Source: Candidatus Woesearchaeota archaeon (GTDB lineage Archaea > Nanobdellota > Nanobdellia > SCGC-AAA011-G17 > GW2011-AR17). Taken from it: a stretch of DNA of 43,211 nucleotides. The stretch is from the NCBI GenBank assembly GCA_964343245.1, contig CAYFIU010000001.1, positions 1 through 43,211 on the forward strand, in the 5' to 3' direction. Under the pieces are notes generated by a model that worked only from the letters and a program-made list of their open reading frames with translations, was not told where the DNA came from and ran no database searches. A program made the position numbers and the translations under genes. Shown here piece by piece: positions 13,108 to 39,838 of this stretch; position 1 is the first letter of the stretch, and every line of letters begins with the position of its first letter.

Positions 13108-13181
13108 AGCCTCGGCCGTGATTTGAACACGGGACCTCTTGCTTACCAAGCAAGTGCTATACCAGGCTAAGCCACCGAGGC
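13108..13181 (-). tRNA. tRNA-Thr (anticodon GGU)
   Basis: Minus-strand sequence: GCCTCGG-TG-GCTT-AGCCTGGTAT-AGC-A-CTTGC-TTGGTAA-GCAAG-AGGTC-CCGTG-TTCAAAT-CACGG-CCGAGGC-T. It folds as a full cloverleaf with U33 and A37. CCA is not encoded. Confidence 0.9.
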
Positions 13182-13264: not shown

Positions 13265-13915
13265 ATGATTGTTGGCTATGATGATTCAAATAATGGAACA
13301 AGAAAGGGCATTGATAGGGTTCTTGTAGCATTGGCAACAACAGATCCTGCAGATGCTATTAGGCATGCTAAAAAATGGAGCTGGTTTGGTAGAAGGGGTA
13401 GAAGGCAAAAAAGAAAAAGTGATTATTTCCCAAAACCACAAATATTAGACCCTGAAAATACATTAAGGGCGTTTGAAAACAGATTTGTTTTTTCTTTAGT
13501 ACCAAATAATATTACTGCAGAGCCTTGGTTAGCAAATTTTACAGACCAAGAAAGACTTTGTATTTGCCTAAGTGAGTTTGTTGCACATTATACTGCCAAT
13601 GGTCATTTAGAGAGATTTATTATTGATGGAAGTCCTAGAGGCTTGTATCCACTTGTCCATGCTTGTTTAAGAGAGGTTTATGGTATAAGAGTAGGAAAAG
13701 ATATAATTTTAGCAGAGAAAGATGCAGATGGAGCTTACAAAGTTGTGAACGATGCTGCCCATGTTGCAAAAGCTTTACATTATTTACAAAGGGGGATGGA
13801 TTATCTTAAACCTGGGTCAAATTCAATTAAAGATTCTCACTTGGCAAGGTGTCTTATAGAACCTCAGCCAGAAAGGTATAGAGATTTAGTACACAGCTTG
13901 AGAAAAGGTCGATAA
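13265..13915 (+). CDS. Divergent RNase HII-like protein
   Basis: 216 aa. Alignment by eye to archaeal RNase HII landmarks: 'IVGYDDSNNG' vs IAGIDEAGRG; 'FIIDGSP' central Asp strand; 'EKDADGAYKVVNDAAHVAKAL' vs KADDIFPVVSAASILAKV. The DSK motif is not seen. TATA cttataag is centred about 28 nt upstream. Confidence 0.45.
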   Translation: MIVGYDDSNNGTRKGIDRVLVALATTDPADAIRHAKKWSWFGRRGRRQKRKSDYFPKPQILDPENTLRAFENRFVFSLVPNNITAEPWLANFTDQERLCICLSEFVAHYTANGHLERFIIDGSPRGLYPLVHACLREVYGIRVGKDIILAEKDADGAYKVVNDAAHVAKALHYLQRGMDYLKPGSNSIKDSHLARCLIEPQPERYRDLVHSLRKGR

Positions 13916-13921
13916 ATATAA

Positions 13922-14173
13922 TGCGGGGGAAGGGATTTGAACCTTCTCGTGAACTTGGGCGAACCCAAAAATCAACTCGAACTCACTAAGAGACAGGATC
14001 TCTTACAAACCTCTGTTTGCATGTCTCACAAATGAGGTTCTGGTCTTAAGTTTCGCAGATTTACAAAACTTGTAAATCCCCTGCGCATATAGCCTGAGGC
14101 AGATTACTCTAACCTCATTTGACCAGACTTTGCTCTGAAGAGTAAAAACCCTAAAGTCTAAACTAACCCCCGC
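13922..14173 (-). tRNA. tRNA-like gene with about 175 nt of internal inserts (candidate multi-intron tRNA; tentative anticodon CCU/Arg)
   Basis: 5' GCGGGGG (14173-14167) pairs perfectly with CCCCCGC (13929-13923) and is followed by discriminator A. The T-arm GAAGG-TTCAAAT-CCCTT lies directly before it. There is an internal 5-bp/7-nt anticodon-like hairpin AAGAG-ATCCTGT-CTCTT (14004-13988) and a D-loop-like TGGTCAAA. TATA cttataaag (14209-14217) lies upstream. Confidence 0.5.
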
Positions 14174-14225
14174 ATGGGATCTGGTCTATAATCTAGAAAA
14201 AATTTGGTCTTATAAAGCTTTTCAT

Positions 14226-14893
14226 TTAAGCCTTAAGTGAAGAGTTTAATATTTCAACACATTTTTCAAGCTCTTTTATTTTATTTAAATTATACCTAAA
14301 ACCAATTATTCTTGCAAAATTGATAATATTCTTTTTGTTTCTTTGAATAGAAAAGTATATATCCCATGTATTTTGATCTTTTTTCCTCTTGGGAGATGAC
14401 AAAACACTACATTCAATTCCAAAGGATTCAATCATAGTTTTGATTTGATCAAGAAAATATCTATGGTTATCTAATAGGTTCTCTTCTTTTGACATTTTGA
14501 ATTGTGGTTTGTTAGCATAAGACTTGTTCTCGATTTTTATTGTTGATAACTCATCCTCTAGAATCCCTTGTAAAAAATAAATTTTGGTTAGTTTAGAACC
14601 ATTAACAATCCATCCGAGGACTGCAAAAGAACATTTGGTTTTTTTGCCTTTGGGTGCTCCAAGTTAATTTAATTTTTTCCAAGTGTTGTTGATAGGTTCA
14701 TATAATAACTGCAAGCATACCCCCATTTTTGATAGATTTTGAAATTAGATTGGATTTTATTCTTATAGTCTGTCTTTATTTTTGTCAGATCTTCCAATTG
14801 TCCTACTAATTTAACAGTATTATTACTATCTATGTGTCCATCACCCATGATTTTCCCAACAAAATAAGTTAGTTCTTGCTTACTTAATTTCAT
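14226..14893 (-). pseudogene. Double-motif LAGLIDADG homing endonuclease gene interrupted by a 20-nt insertion (stop + frame change)
   Basis: The N-terminal half (14669..14893) carries 'LTYFVGKIMGDGHID'. The C-terminal half is in another frame and carries 'KIYFLQGILEDELS' and 'NIINFARIIGF'. The break lies between two copies of tccaag (14658-14663 and 14678-14683). Removing one copy plus the 14-nt spacer restores ...STTLGAPKGKK... Confidence 0.7.
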
Positions 14894-14915
14894 ATCATAA
14901 CACAAGAAAAATACC

Positions 14916-14923
14916 CTTATAAG
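14916..14923 (-). promoter_or_regulatory. TATA box for the LAGLIDADG gene
   Basis: cttataag is centred 27 nt upstream of ATG (complement 14891-14893). This argues that Met19 of the track ORF is the real start. Confidence 0.5.
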
Positions 14924-15015
14924 CTCTGCGCGTAAACGCCCTGTCACTCACTATATACTAGAGTATACACTTTCGCTTAACAATCTTTAAATACTTCTCC
15001 AACCATACTATAACC

Positions 15016-36661: not shown

Positions 36662-37834
36662 ATGATACTTAAAATGGCAAATAAAGATCAAATATTAGCT
36701 GAGCATAAAGAGCAAGTAAGGAGGAATAGGATGAGACCGACATTATTTTGGAAGATTACTACTATAGTATTCTTAATATTATTTATAGGCGCAATATACT
36801 TCAATGGTATGCCAAGTTTTAGCAATGACGTTGGGCAAGATGAAGCTGTACAGACAGCAGTTGCTTTTATTAACGAAAACATGCTAATGGGCCTTGCAAG
36901 TGCAGAAGTGCAAGAAGTATCAGAAGATAAAGGTATGTACAAGATTGACTTGTTAATCACAAGCGATAGCTTGGACTACACCGAAGAATTCACATCATAT
37001 GTTACAAAAGATGGGAAACTACTTTTCCCAACAGCAGTTGACTTAGGCGAACTTCAAGTTCCAGTTGAGGAAGACCCTGTTGTAGAGGATCCTGTTGATG
37101 AAGATCCATTAGCAGAAATTGATTACTCAGGAGATCCAGTTCTAGGAAACCCTGAAGCAACAGTAACAATTGTTGAATACTCAGACTTCGAATGTCCATT
37201 CTGTAGCAATGCATACTGGACAATGAGGCTAATTGAAGAAGATTACGCAGACAGTGTTAAAATTATCTTTAAACAATTCCCACTAAGCTTCCACGCAAAC
37301 GCACAAAAAGCAGCAGAAGCATCTGAATGCGCATTTGACCAGGACATGTTCTGGGAATACCACAACATGCTATTCGAGAACCAGGAAGCACTAAGTGTTG
37401 ACGATCTAAAACAATATGCAGTAGATCTTGGACTTAATACAGAACAATTTAATACATGTTTAGACTCTGGAGAAAAAGCAGATGAGGTTGCACAAGATAT
37501 GGAAGATGGATCAGCACTAGGAGTAACAGGTACACCAGCTTTCTTCATAAATGGCCAAAGCCTTGTAGGTGCACAACCATATGAAGCATTCCAAGCAATC
37601 ATCGATGCAGAACTAGCAACTGAAGAAGAACCTGCTGAAGAGGAACCAGTTGAGGAAGACCCTGTTGTAGAGGATCCTGTTGATGAAGAACCTGTAGAAG
37701 AGGAACCTGCTGAAGAAGAACCAGCTGAGGAAGAGCCTGCTGAAGAACCTACAGGCGAAGAGTGCAGTTCTACAGAAGATTGTCCAGAAAACAGCATTTG
37801 TTTCAGTGGAAATTGTATAGAAATACAAAACTAG
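36662..37834 (+). CDS. Membrane-anchored DsbA-like thiol:disulfide oxidoreductase with acidic Pro/Glu repeats and a Cys-rich C-terminal knot
   Basis: N-terminal TM helix. 'VEYSDFECPFCSNAY' is the CxxC active site. DsbA-fold landmarks ('FPLSFHANA', 'GVTGTPAFFING'). (EEPA/EEPV)n tail. C-terminal CSSTEDCPENSICFSGNC. Confidence 0.75.
   Translation: MILKMANKDQILAEHKEQVRRNRMRPTLFWKITTIVFLILFIGAIYFNGMPSFSNDVGQDEAVQTAVAFINENMLMGLASAEVQEVSEDKGMYKIDLLITSDSLDYTEEFTSYVTKDGKLLFPTAVDLGELQVPVEEDPVVEDPVDEDPLAEIDYSGDPVLGNPEATVTIVEYSDFECPFCSNAYWTMRLIEEDYADSVKIIFKQFPLSFHANAQKAAEASECAFDQDMFWEYHNMLFENQEALSVDDLKQYAVDLGLNTEQFNTCLDSGEKADEVAQDMEDGSALGVTGTPAFFINGQSLVGAQPYEAFQAIIDAELATEEEPAEEEPVEEDPVVEDPVDEEPVEEEPAEEEPAEEEPAEEPTGEECSSTEDCPENSICFSGNCIEIQN
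37061..37104 (+). repeat. Copy 1 of a perfect 44-nt direct repeat inside the DsbA-like gene
   Basis: ccagttgaggaagaccctgttgtagaggatcctgttgatgaaga is identical to 37646-37689. It encodes PVEEDPVVEDPVDE. Confidence 0.9.
37646..37689 (+). repeat. Copy 2 of the perfect 44-nt direct repeat
   Basis: Identical 44-mer, 585 nt downstream of copy 1. The two copies bracket the thioredoxin-fold domain. Confidence 0.9.
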
Positions 37835-39759
37835 TTTAGAAGGTTACCAACATAAACCTTCTTTACATTTTTTATTCTTTTTATTCTTTCAATTATATTC
37901 TGTAAATGTTCTAAACCTGTTGTTTCCATTGTAAAAGAGCATTCAACATTATCTTGCCCTCTTGGCTGTGCATTAGCAGATTTGATTGTTGTATGAAGAG
38001 CAACAAGCGTGTTAAGTATCTCAGCAAACAGACCAACTCTATTCAAAGCATCAACTTTTATTTCAACAAGAGAACCAATGTTAGCTGTCCACTCAACATT
38101 AACCTTTTTCTTTCTTGACCCTAACTTAATCTTCTTAAGTTGTGAACAAGCATGTTTATGAATAGTAACCTTGCCATTGCTTGTGGCATAACCAACTATC
38201 TCTTCACCAGGCAAAGGAGAACAACACTTTGCAATTAATATTTCAGGATTAATTATACCTTCAACATCAATGATCCATGCTTCTAACTCTTTTTTCACAT
38301 CACCAGTTTGTTTAATGGTTTTAACAGGAATGTTTTGCACAGCACGCAAATACTTTTTTATTCTGGATTGTGCTCGAGAAGTTCTAGCAATCTTTAACCA
38401 AGATCTTGAAGGGCGCTGGTTTTTAGCAGTAACAATTTCAACCTTGTCACCATTTTTCAAAGTTGTTCGTAAAGGAGCAAAATGTCCATTAATCTTTCCA
38501 GCAATTGTTCTGTCACCAACATCAGAGTGAACAGCATAAGCAAAATCAAGAACAGTTGCACCAGTTGGCAACTCAATAACTCTTCCTTTTGGTGTAAATG
38601 TAAAAATTTCCCTTTCAAAGAAATCAACATGCAACATCTCCATAAATTCTGTTGCATTTTCACTTTCTTTCTGCCATTCCATAACTTGCTTCATCCAGTT
38701 TAACTTTTCATCAAACTTTTTATCACCTGCAACACCTTTGTATCTCCAGTGTGCAGCAATCCCATCCTCAGCAACCTGATGCATGTCTTGGGTTCTAACT
38801 TGAATCTCAACAGGCTTTTTGTCAGGACCAATAACAACCATGTGCAATGACTGATACCTGTTAGACTTGGGTGTAGCAATATAATCATCAAACTCTTTTG
38901 GAATAGGAGTCCACAAACTATGAACAACACCCATCACCTCATAACACTCTTTAGGATATTTAACAATAATTCTTATCCCAGCAATATCATAAATATCAGA
39001 GAAAGGTTTATCTTTTCTTAACATTTTTTTGTAAATACTATACAAGTGTTTTGGCCTACCACTAATGTCAGCTTCAATTGACTCTCCTTTCAACTGCTCC
39101 CTAAGTGTTTTCTTAACTTTTTCAATTTGTATTTCTCTTTCTTTCTGACTTTGTTGCAGCTTTCTTTTCAAATCTTTGTAAACCTCAGGCTCAAGGTACT
39201 TGAAAGCTAAATCCTCCAATTCCCACTTAATACTAGCAATGCCTAACTTGTAAGCAATAGGGGCATAAATGTTCAGAACCTCTCTAGCAATCCTTTCACA
39301 CTTTTCTTGCCTAAAAACACCAACAGTTCTCATGTTGTGCAATTTGTCAGCAAGTTTGATAAAAATAACTCTAACATCCCTTATTGAAGCAAGGATAACT
39401 TTTCTAACAGTCTCAGCAGTGTACTCTTCAAAACTCATCTCTCTAAGCTTTGTAATCTTTGTAACACCTTCAATAATATTAGCAATCTCTTCCCCAAATT
39501 CAGAGACAATATCTTCTTTAATAACCTCAGTATCCTCAACAACATCATGCAATAAAGCAGCAGAAATAGTGGTAGCTCCTAACTTATGCTCAGCTAAAAT
39601 ATAAGCAACACTCAAAGGATGTTGGATAAAAAGCTCTCCTGAGGACCTTCTTTGCGTACCATGATGCTTCTTTGCAAACTGGTAAGCTTTCCTAATTAGA
39701 TCAAAGTCAGCTTTCTTATCATAACCTTCAATTTTTCTGATAATAGTCCTTAGTTGCAT
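37831..39759 (-). CDS. Long bifunctional RelA/SpoT homologue ((p)ppGpp synthetase/hydrolase: HD-SYNTH-TGS-ZFD-ACT)
   Basis: HD motif 'HGTQRRSSGELFIQHPLSVA...LLHDVVEDT'. Synthetase 'RPKHLYSIYKKM...DIAGIRIIV...YQSLHMVV...VEIQVRTQDMH..AE.GIAAHWRYK'. TGS 'FTPKGRVIELPTGATVLDFAYAVHSDVG'. CCSPLPGE zinc motif and ACT-like C-terminus. Start chosen at Met21 (complement 39757-39759) from TATA spacing. Confidence 0.9.
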   Translation of the reverse strand: MQLRTIIRKIEGYDKKADFDLIRKAYQFAKKHHGTQRRSSGELFIQHPLSVAYILAEHKLGATTISAALLHDVVEDTEVIKEDIVSEFGEEIANIIEGVTKITKLREMSFEEYTAETVRKVILASIRDVRVIFIKLADKLHNMRTVGVFRQEKCERIAREVLNIYAPIAYKLGIASIKWELEDLAFKYLEPEVYKDLKRKLQQSQKEREIQIEKVKKTLREQLKGESIEADISGRPKHLYSIYKKMLRKDKPFSDIYDIAGIRIIVKYPKECYEVMGVVHSLWTPIPKEFDDYIATPKSNRYQSLHMVVIGPDKKPVEIQVRTQDMHQVAEDGIAAHWRYKGVAGDKKFDEKLNWMKQVMEWQKESENATEFMEMLHVDFFEREIFTFTPKGRVIELPTGATVLDFAYAVHSDVGDRTIAGKINGHFAPLRTTLKNGDKVEIVTAKNQRPSRSWLKIARTSRAQSRIKKYLRAVQNIPVKTIKQTGDVKKELEAWIIDVEGIINPEILIAKCCSPLPGEEIVGYATSNGKVTIHKHACSQLKKIKLGSRKKKVNVEWTANIGSLVEIKVDALNRVGLFAEILNTLVALHTTIKSANAQPRGQDNVECSFTMETTGLEHLQNIIERIKRIKNVKKVYVGNLLN

Positions 39760-39783
39760 GGTTTTTAAGAATAAGTAAGAGAG

Positions 39784-39794
39784 ATTTATAAAAG
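39784..39794. promoter_or_regulatory. Shared near-palindromic TATA element between the divergent RSH and E1-like genes
   Basis: atttataaaag is centred about 30 nt from the RSH ATG (leaderless). It is about 50 nt from the E1-like ATG, whose short leader carries SD-like GAAGGAAAAGG. Confidence 0.45.
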
Positions 39795-39838
39795 TTGTCA
39801 TGGAAAGACTTTTAAACAATTGCTGAAGGAAAAGGTAT

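Follow-up and report, generated by a model that had tools for sequence, protein, structure and literature searches.

The minus strand of positions 14173-13922 of the window, i.e. the whole 43,211-nt stretch of archaeal DNA analysed here, very probably carries a class II tRNA-Leu(UAA) gene that is interrupted by five bulge-helix-bulge (BHB) introns and consists of six exons. All coordinates are window positions, whereby minus-strand index i corresponds to 14174 - i. A first-pass annotation of the same DNA had noticed tRNA ends separated by 252 nt, and direct reading of the minus strand confirms exact tRNA ends at this distance. The acceptor strands GCGGGGG (14173-14167) and CCCCCGC (13929-13923) form 7/7 Watson-Crick pairs, the A at 13922 takes the place of the discriminator A73, and a T-arm with a GUUCAAAUC-type loop directly precedes the 3' acceptor strand.

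Both strands of the 43-kb window were scanned for 7-nt strands that follow a T-arm and have a perfect complement at most 450 nt upstream. This arrangement is found at the present locus and at the annotated tRNA-Thr gene (13108-13181) only, and the scan reveals no further hidden tRNAs in the window. The 252-nt RNA folds with z = -4.6 compared to dinucleotide shuffles. Moreover, at least 120 archaeal genome records have tRNA-Leu genes whose 3' ends equal the 3'-terminal 22-mer GGTTCAAATCCCTTCCCCCGCA, and tRNA-Leu accounts for 91 of the 94 ARAGORN calls (made without intron mode) at the sites of this 22-mer. Based on the window scan, the fold z-score and the 22-mer match, the tRNA-like pattern exceeds chance.

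Exons, introns and splice motifs

Intronless tRNA-Leu(UAA) genes, one of which (from the 22-mer loci) reads GCGGGGGTAGCAAAGCCTGGCCAAATGCGCAGGACTTAAGATCCTGTCTCTTAGTGAGTTCGAGGGTTCAAATCCCTTCCCCCGCA, map onto the locus as six colinear blocks. Excision of 14165-14135, 14118-14089, 14079-14052, 14044-14000 and 13975-13944 leads to a product of 86 nt that is identical to intronless archaeal tRNA-Leu(UAA) genes at 84/86 positions. ARAGORN calls this product tRNA-Leu(taa) of 86 nt at default settings, and the cloverleaf is its minimum-free-energy (MFE) fold. Typical leucine features are the anticodon UAA, A73 and a variable region of 15 nt with a 3-bp stem. The D-stem GCA/UGC (3 bp) closes a D-loop of 13 nt, and the stem of the T-arm GAGGG-UUCAAAU-CCCUU is fully paired. 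The nucleotides generally regarded as universal in tRNAs (U8, A14, G18 G19, A21, U33, G53, U54 U55 C56, A58, C61) are all found in the spliced sequence according to the ARAGORN cloverleaf. The mature RNA would comprise 86 nt before CCA addition; CCA is not encoded.

The five introns are 31, 30, 28, 45 and 32 nt long and follow tRNA positions 8, 21, 30, 37 and 51. They separate exons of 8, 16, 9, 7, 24 and 22 nt, all colinear within 252 nt. Splice sites were evaluated by the BHB rule of two 3-nt bulges on opposite strands with a 4-bp helix between them (3-4-3; PMC3239211). All five junctions consist of a 3-nt bulge, a 4-bp helix with 4/4 pairs and a second 3-nt bulge, and a cut after the second nucleotide of each bulge restores the intronless sequence exactly. 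As a negative control we used pseudo-introns from a first spliced-alignment pass on non-homologous loci (identity below 75 of 86). Complete central helices (4/4 pairs) occur in 71 of 79 introns of true homologues, compared to 5 of 64 pseudo-introns in these spurious alignments. The first-pass annotation had expected BHB-type introns mostly at non-canonical positions, which is borne out, and had put their number at three to four, whereas relatives and BHB geometry yield five. Exon boundaries and isotype had openly been left unsettled there.

All features described in the following are located on the minus strand. Exon 1 (14166-14173, GCGGGGGU) covers positions 1-8, aligns to intronless tRNA-Leu(UAA) and is contiguous with exon 2 in the relatives L147 and L148. 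Intron 1 (14135-14165, 31 nt) is inserted between positions 8 and 9. Its BHB has the central helix GGGG/CUUC, the bulges GUU and AGA, an inner helix AGU/ACU of 3 bp and an outer helix of 2 bp (G1-C42, C2-G41), possibly extended by a leader helix (see below). In 12 genes with intron 1 the central helix co-varies between G.U, A-U and G-C.

Exon 2 (14119-14134, AGCAAAGUCUGGUCAA) corresponds to positions 9-21, containing the 5' strand of the D-stem and the D-loop with G18 G19, and is identical in every five-intron relative. Intron 2 (14089-14118, 30 nt) is located in the D-loop between positions 21 and 22, whereby placement at 22/23 gives the same product. The central helix GGUC/GGCU is flanked by the bulges AAA and AUA and followed by an inner hairpin of 9 bp, in which 5/9 pairs show compensatory changes. 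In relatives, 6/7 intron-2 motifs retain 4/4 central pairs and 3-nt bulges.

Exon 3 (14080-14088, AUGCGCAGG) represents positions 22-30 with the 3' strand of the D-stem, G26 and, as its last part, the initial four nucleotides of the anticodon stem. Intron 3 (14052-14079, 28 nt), between positions 30 and 31, forms a BHB with the central helix CGCA/UGCG, the bulges GGG and AAA, a 9-bp inner hairpin and the outer pair G88-C124. A BHB-like unit at 14085-14051 (9-bp hairpin, GGG, CGCA/UGCG, AAA), recognised already in the first pass, is exactly this intron with its splice motif. The junction ...GCAGG/...UGCGAA/ACUUAAG (slashes at the exon boundaries) is common to eight distinct intron-3 motifs, including those of L020, L133, L088 and L057.

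Exon 4 (14045-14051, ACUUAAG) is only 7 nt long and spans positions 31-37, with the anticodon UAA at 14048-14046. Joined to exon 5 it gives the loop C32 U33 U34 A35 A36 G37 A38. Intron 4 (14000-14044, 45 nt) occupies the canonical position 37/38. It shows the central helix CUUA/UAAG with the bulges AGA and AGA; on the inner side the pair C131-G168 precedes a helix of 6 bp. The anticodon stem itself serves as outer helix and is complete only once intron 3 is gone.

Exon 5 (13976-13999, AUCCUGUCUCUUAGUGAGUUCGAG), positions 38-51, comprises the 3' strand of the anticodon stem, the long variable arm and the first three nucleotides of the T-stem. Intron 5 (13944-13975, 32 nt) disrupts the T-stem between positions 51 and 52 with the central helix UUCG/CGAG, the bulges AGU and AAG, and an inner helix UGA/UCA that leads into a UUCG-capped hairpin. 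All 15 distinct intron-5 BHBs in relatives exhibit 4/4 central pairs, the second pair being U-A in 7 and C-G in 8 of them. Exon 6 (13922-13943, GGUUCAAAUCCCUUCCCCCGCA), positions 52-73, provides the rest of the T-arm, the 3' acceptor strand and A73. The T-arm GAAGG-UUCAAAU-CCCUU described earlier is present directly before the acceptor strand, but its stem with an A.C mismatch did not hold: the true stem is GAGGG/CCCUU, and the mismatch results from including GAA (13946-13944), with which intron 5 ends. By reading the introns, no pair of C box (RUGAUGA) and D box (CUGA) as in box C/D guide RNAs was found in them.

Relatives, intron turnover and selection

Relatives were collected by a metagenome scan anchored on exon 5-gap-exon 6 and by look-ups via the neighbouring HTH_45 gene. 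The 41 distinct homologous genes fall into groups with no intron (8), one (4), two (12), three (10), four (2) and five introns (5). Five introns are present in the window gene (also in L001 and L139), L130 (=L145, NCBI GCA_018651505.1), L140, L146 and L147, four in L132 and L148. The gene of L147 (3893-4141, minus strand) lacks intron 1 and instead has an extra BHB intron in the loop of the variable arm, so that the clade uses six positions. No six-intron gene combining all six positions of this marine clade was seen among the tRNA-Leu relatives. An intron in the variable-arm loop, as in L147, is also found in L099, and L055 exhibits a second intron position in the D-loop.

Natural alleles without the respective insertion exist for all five introns, each of which at least one homologue lacks with nucleotide precision. 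Intron 1 is missing in L147 and L148, intron 2 in L150, L151 and L132, intron 3 in L151 and L131, intron 4 in L070 and the intronless genes, and intron 5 in L150, L151 and L020. The loci L140, L146, L147, L148, L150, L151 and L015 are syntenic with the window and carry 5, 5, 5, 4, 2, 2 and 2 introns, respectively. Because syntenic genes differ in intron number, introns are gained or lost quickly. In L151 an IS605 OrfB/TnpB-type gene (L151:2437-3561) adjoins the two-intron tRNA-Leu gene. L015 ('bacterium'), L045, L095 and L125 ('uncultured Methanosarcinales archaeon') carry the same Woesearchaeota-type disrupted tRNA-Leu, and L015, as a syntenic locus, also encodes an HTH_45 protein with 83% identity. 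The taxonomic labels of these four entries are probably wrong.

Among relatives the exons are 98-100% identical and the introns 67-89%. Between the window and L140 identity amounts to 86/86 in exons, 120/168 (71%) in introns and 47-84% in neighbouring proteins. The difference between exons and introns points to purifying selection on the exons and, as judged from the alignments, indirectly supports a function as tRNA. Covariation of the full gene was evaluated with four or five sequences per test. In the four genes with introns 1 to 5 the structure containing all BHBs has 94.9% of cells paired, compared to 29-47% when the partners are slid, and seven of its pairs change on both sides in a compensatory manner. 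The cloverleaf is paired in 100% of cells. Compensatory changes are found at the acceptor pair 4:69 and in the variable arm, where a U-A pair is replaced by C-G in L146.

A TATA-like box, TTTATAA (14210-14216, minus strand), is located 43 nt upstream of tRNA position 1 and is a putative archaeal promoter. TTTATAA or TTTAAAT is found 40-44 nt upstream of G1 in 8 of 10 relatives checked; the box is at -34 in L015 and at -46 in L132.

These data bear on the possibility that the locus is a decaying pseudogene, i.e. a former tRNA-Leu invaded by insertions that gives no functional tRNA. Such decay would agree with the failure of standard detectors at this locus and with the frameshift in the adjoining LAGLIDADG-like gene of the window, and expression is so far deduced from the DNA. 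However, exons 100% identical to L140 next to introns of 71% identity and proteins of 47-84%, compensatory changes that preserve both BHB helices and cloverleaf, and a precise 3-4-3 BHB at every insertion are not what decay leaves behind. Identical copies are moreover present in independent assemblies. The selection pattern and the conserved promoter box together argue against a pseudogene, which we regard as improbable.

Precursor folding and alternative readings

Applying the established knowledge of archaeal tRNA splicing to the tRNA-Leu(UAA) gene, transcription, cleavage, ligation and their order would be as follows. Transcription directed by the TATA-like box at -43 would start ~14 nt upstream of position 1. 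Each exon-intron boundary would adopt the 3-4-3 BHB fold, and the archaeal tRNA splicing endonuclease EndA would cleave after the second nucleotide of each bulge. The exons would be joined by an RtcB-type ligase and the ends trimmed by RNase P and tRNase Z, followed by CCA addition. The full BHB of intron 4 is expected to form only after removal of intron 3, since the anticodon stem exists only then.

The 5' leader contains the element GACCAGA (14180-14186, minus strand) which is complementary to UCUGGUC (14127-14121) in the D-loop. This D-loop segment has three mutually exclusive partners: the leader element (14186-14180), GGCU of intron 2 (14094-14091), with which it forms the central helix of the intron-2 BHB, and the exon 4/intron 4 junction (14045-14039), again GACCAGA, to which the end of exon 4 contributes one nucleotide and the start of intron 4 six. 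On average, the longest leader/D-loop helix measures 7.5 bp if intron 1 is present and 5.2 bp if it is absent (Mann-Whitney p = 5e-5, uncorrected for phylogeny). Analogously, the helix between intron-4 start and D-loop measures 6.4 bp with intron 3 and 3.5 bp without (p = 9e-6, likewise uncorrected). The leader co-varies with the D-loop (GACCAGAC/GUCUGGUC versus GCCAGGC/GCCUGGC), and so does the intron-4 start. As exceptions, L147 and L148 retain the leader element despite having no intron 1. Leader and intron-4 start may act as clamps by lengthening the outer helices, which are weak, in the BHBs of introns 1 and 3. The competing D-loop partners suggest stepwise refolding during splicing. An 11-bp helix (14121-14111/14039-14029), already listed in the first pass, connects the boundary of exon 2 and intron 2 with an internal part of intron 4 and competes with the inner helices of two BHBs. 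In four relatives 90% of its cells are paired, with two compensatory pairs, and L130 shows two A.C mismatches.

Several observations weigh against a functional five-intron tRNA-Leu(UAA) gene. The transcript and every splice junction are predictions from the DNA. ARAGORN finds nothing on the unspliced locus, neither at default settings nor in default intron mode, the check with introns allowed having been proposed in the first pass. At the gathering threshold the unspliced locus has no Rfam match, RF00005 included, and with E up to 10 the region 13850-14250 yields chance-level matches to small nucleolar RNAs, microRNAs and viral elements only. Such a miss of the unspliced DNA is to be expected because of the five introns. 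Thermodynamic folding fails to reproduce the BHB fold from the full precursor: the all-BHB structure has -31 kcal/mol (-49 kcal/mol completed), while the naked transcript reaches an MFE of -86 kcal/mol. Hence the structural support comes from geometry and covariation, not from energy, and the fold would have to be reached co-transcriptionally or with the help of proteins. Introns 2 and 5 have inner helices only and no contiguous outer helix. They represent relaxed motifs and would therefore need an endonuclease of broad specificity. Neither an EndA nor an RtcB gene is found in the 43-kb window, and a second, intact tRNA-Leu(UAA) is possible elsewhere in the genome, outside the window.

At relaxed ARAGORN settings two poor models were obtained and dismissed as artefacts, a tRNA-SeC(UCA) with a 156-nt intron (-ps90, -ps80) and an antisense tRNA-Pyl (-ps80).

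The missing outer helices of introns 2 and 5, together with an all-BHB fold far from the MFE and the competing long-range helices, could also mean that the gene is a real tRNA-Leu in which one or more inserts, likeliest intron 2 or 5, are spliced poorly or removed by something other than EndA, leaving the gene partly functional or regulated. Yet the intron-5 (15/15) and intron-2 motifs (6/7) keep their central pairs and bulges with covariation, and EndA of broad specificity is known to accept relaxed motifs in which a flanking helix is missing on one side (PMC3239211). Incomplete or EndA-independent removal is thus highly improbable.

The first-pass annotation had assigned the locus to tRNA-Arg(CCU), built from five joined segments with three to four introns between them. 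It combined a D-stem AGUU/AACU, the anticodon hairpin AAGAG-AUCCUGU-CUCUU and a T-stem GAAGG/CCCUU. All elements it quoted are indeed present in the DNA at the positions given, namely UGGUCAAA at 14125-14118, AGUU at 14164-14161, AACU at 14052-14049, the hairpin at 14004-13988, two copies of UAAGA and the GACUUU/AAAGUC and UUCG-capped hairpins. Three versions of the joined product are even accepted by ARAGORN at default settings as tRNA-Arg(cct). As the program accepts this product as well, only relatives and BHB geometry separate the Arg from the Leu solution, and a detector match on a manually joined sequence is to be taken as weak evidence.

Both decide for leucine. The Arg solution assigns AUGCGCAGG and AGCAAAG to introns, whereas both are invariant, contiguous exon sequence in homologues without the introns. 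In an alignment of orthologues, another check proposed earlier, the Arg stems (D, anticodon, T) pair in 48/56 cells over four relatives, while the Leu stems pair in 64/64. The Arg anticodon stem is broken in three relatives and the A.C mismatch of its T-stem recurs in all four. AAGAG/CUCUU turns out to result from pairing between the variable arm and the last nucleotides of intron 4; in relatives its fifth pair is broken in 3/4 and its fourth in one. The D-stem is GCA/UGC instead of AGUU/AACU. The 13-nt D-loop and the extra sequence in the variable region, which had appeared as oddities, are normal for a class II tRNA. Arg junctions deviate from BHB geometry, except for one that is a single nucleotide away from intron 4, and the end sequence, D-loop, A73 and long variable arm are of the archaeal tRNA-Leu type. 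We consequently see next to no chance for tRNA-Arg(CCU). Of the outcomes named in advance as speaking against a multi-intron tRNA, a strong Rfam match to a different RNA family did not appear with E up to 10, and a BHB-compatible cloverleaf does exist, as the five-intron splice gives a product scored by ARAGORN.

A different structured RNA with tRNA-like ends, be it transfer-messenger RNA (tmRNA)-like, a tRNA with group I intron or a novel non-coding RNA, would fit ends 252 nt apart and the good fold of the naked RNA (z = -4.6) but is exceedingly unlikely given the complete tRNA-Leu sequence in colinear blocks, the lack of any match in ARAGORN tmRNA mode (-m) or to an Rfam family at E up to 10, the pair G3-C70 at 3:70 where tmRNA requires G3.U70, and five inserts of 28-45 nt each, far below the size of group I introns. 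A group I intron of the cyanobacterial or plastid type in the anticodon loop of tRNA-Leu(UAA) was likewise rejected, as the inserts are five and short and give no Rfam group I match. A split or permuted tRNA gene was dismissed as well, all six exons being colinear within 252 nt.

Genomic context and comparison with known systems

The window belongs to a marine archaeon of the DPANN superphylum with affinity to Woesearchaeota/Nanoarchaeota. Its aIF2-gamma shares 65-71% identity with proteins that bear the names Candidatus Woesearchaeota, Nanoarchaeota or Nanoarchaeia, and the window encodes further archaeal information-processing genes (ABCE1, aIF5B, L7Ae, S28e, L24e, S6e). The contigs originate from marine metagenomes. 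A thaumarchaeal affinity, considered due to the marine source and a GC content of 34%, is contradicted by the names of the aIF2-gamma homologues. A full-length RelA/SpoT-type protein (HD, RelA_SpoT, TGS, ACT) is encoded at 37831-39819 (minus strand) on this DPANN-like contig. Convergent to the tRNA gene, an open reading frame (ORF) of 216 amino acids (13265-13915, plus strand) without Pfam match ends 7 nt from the tRNA 3' end. Among the relatives from the exon 5-gap-exon 6 scan, tblastn found it only in L139, which is identical to the window, and in none of the others, including L130, L140 and L015.

Directly upstream of the tRNA gene, and not part of the RNA, lies a LAGLIDADG-like gene (family A; 14229-14893, minus strand). 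In the window it is frameshifted into the ORFs 14669-14947 and 14226-14495; tblastn with the intact 221-amino-acid homologue of L140 hits two pieces in different frames, and the Pfam LAGLIDADG_3 match is below threshold. Intact family-A homologues are L140:600-1265, L148:3447-4127 and L015:2908-3708. An unrelated, clear LAGLIDADG_3 gene (E = 2e-14, weak match to I-DmoI) occupies the same spot in L145/L130 (L145:3232-3846, 204 amino acids) and L146 (3540-4118). It reaches 20 nt into the 5' end of the tRNA gene, where the frame of L145 terminates. L150 exhibits a LAGLIDADG-type remnant only (L150:3828-3953). This suggests a turnover of homing-endonuclease genes at one site.

No clear pattern between LAGLIDADG presence and intron number is seen among the syntenic relatives: loci with such a gene or a fragment have 5, 5, 5, 5, 4 and 2 introns, loci with none or a remnant 5, 2 and 2. 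A functional link of the LAGLIDADG genes to the tRNA gene or to the build-up of introns is speculative. Two unrelated families adjoin the gene, and with introns every 7-24 nt the conserved tRNA sequence is nowhere continuous over a long distance. From these two observations one may conceive tRNA-Leu(UAA) as homing or target site of free-standing LAGLIDADG endonucleases and the accumulation of introns as an arms race, which we consider doubtful. If true, it would give concrete support to an old proposal of Randau and Soll, as cited in PMC4033280, that disruption of tRNA genes protects against mobile elements, and the spread of introns could be explained by co-conversion during repair of the cut.

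According to reviews and the tRNAscan-SE 2.0 paper, archaeal tRNA genes have at most three introns (PMC4033280, PMC8450103). No report of a tRNA gene with four or five introns was found in a limited literature search. The five introns of the tRNA-Leu(UAA) gene and of four distinct relatives are two above the reported maximum and set a new bound on the cis fragmentation of a tRNA gene that is still under selection. DPANN genomes are known to be rich in disrupted tRNA genes, and their sets of predicted tRNAs to be incomplete (PMC5829648, PMC3239211, bioRxiv 10.64898/2026.05.13.725050), and 'missing' DPANN tRNAs have already been suspected to be undetected disrupted genes (PMC3239211, PMC5829648). 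A gene that is missed by ARAGORN at default settings and by Rfam offers a concrete explanation for such gaps in DPANN/Nanobdellota (PMC5829648; bioRxiv 10.64898/2026.05.13.725050) and a test case for intron-aware tRNA finders. Beyond that, orthologous syntenic genes with 2, 4 or 5 introns form a natural series for intron gain and loss, and on the mutually exclusive D-loop pairings one may model how a precursor with several introns folds in an ordered manner.

One of the closest parallels is found in Thermoproteales, e.g. Pyrobaculum calidifontis, where a single gene may contain several canonical and non-canonical BHB introns, some BHBs form only after another intron has been removed, and introns change fast between relatives (PMC8450103, PMC4033280). 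However, Thermoproteales belong to TACK and have a reported maximum of three introns per gene, while the present gene has five, its clade uses six positions, its host belongs to DPANN and its exons are as short as 7-9 nt. ARMAN-2, Pacearchaeota and Woesearchaeota, members of the same superphylum, share non-canonical introns with strict and relaxed BHBs (PMC3239211, PMC5829648) and possess splicing endonucleases of broad specificity, but no gene with more than three introns was found described there. In Nanoarchaeum equitans the halves of split tRNAs are joined via complementary leaders: a stretch that is absent from the mature tRNA pairs with the other part of the precursor and helps to build the BHB at the boundary (PMC4033280). 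Similarly, the leader GACCAGA can pair with the D-loop beside the intron-1 BHB, a role that covariation and co-occurrence suggest apart from two exceptions; in contrast to N. equitans, the exons are colinear in one transcript and would be spliced in cis. In nuclear tRNA genes of the eukaryote Cyanidioschyzon merolae, the D-arm, position 37/38 and the T-arm of a single gene may each contain an intron, with a preferred order of removal, but the maximum is three ectopic BHB introns and some genes are permuted (PMC3728597). Taken together, the kind of feature is known, whereas its degree and parts of its anatomy are new.

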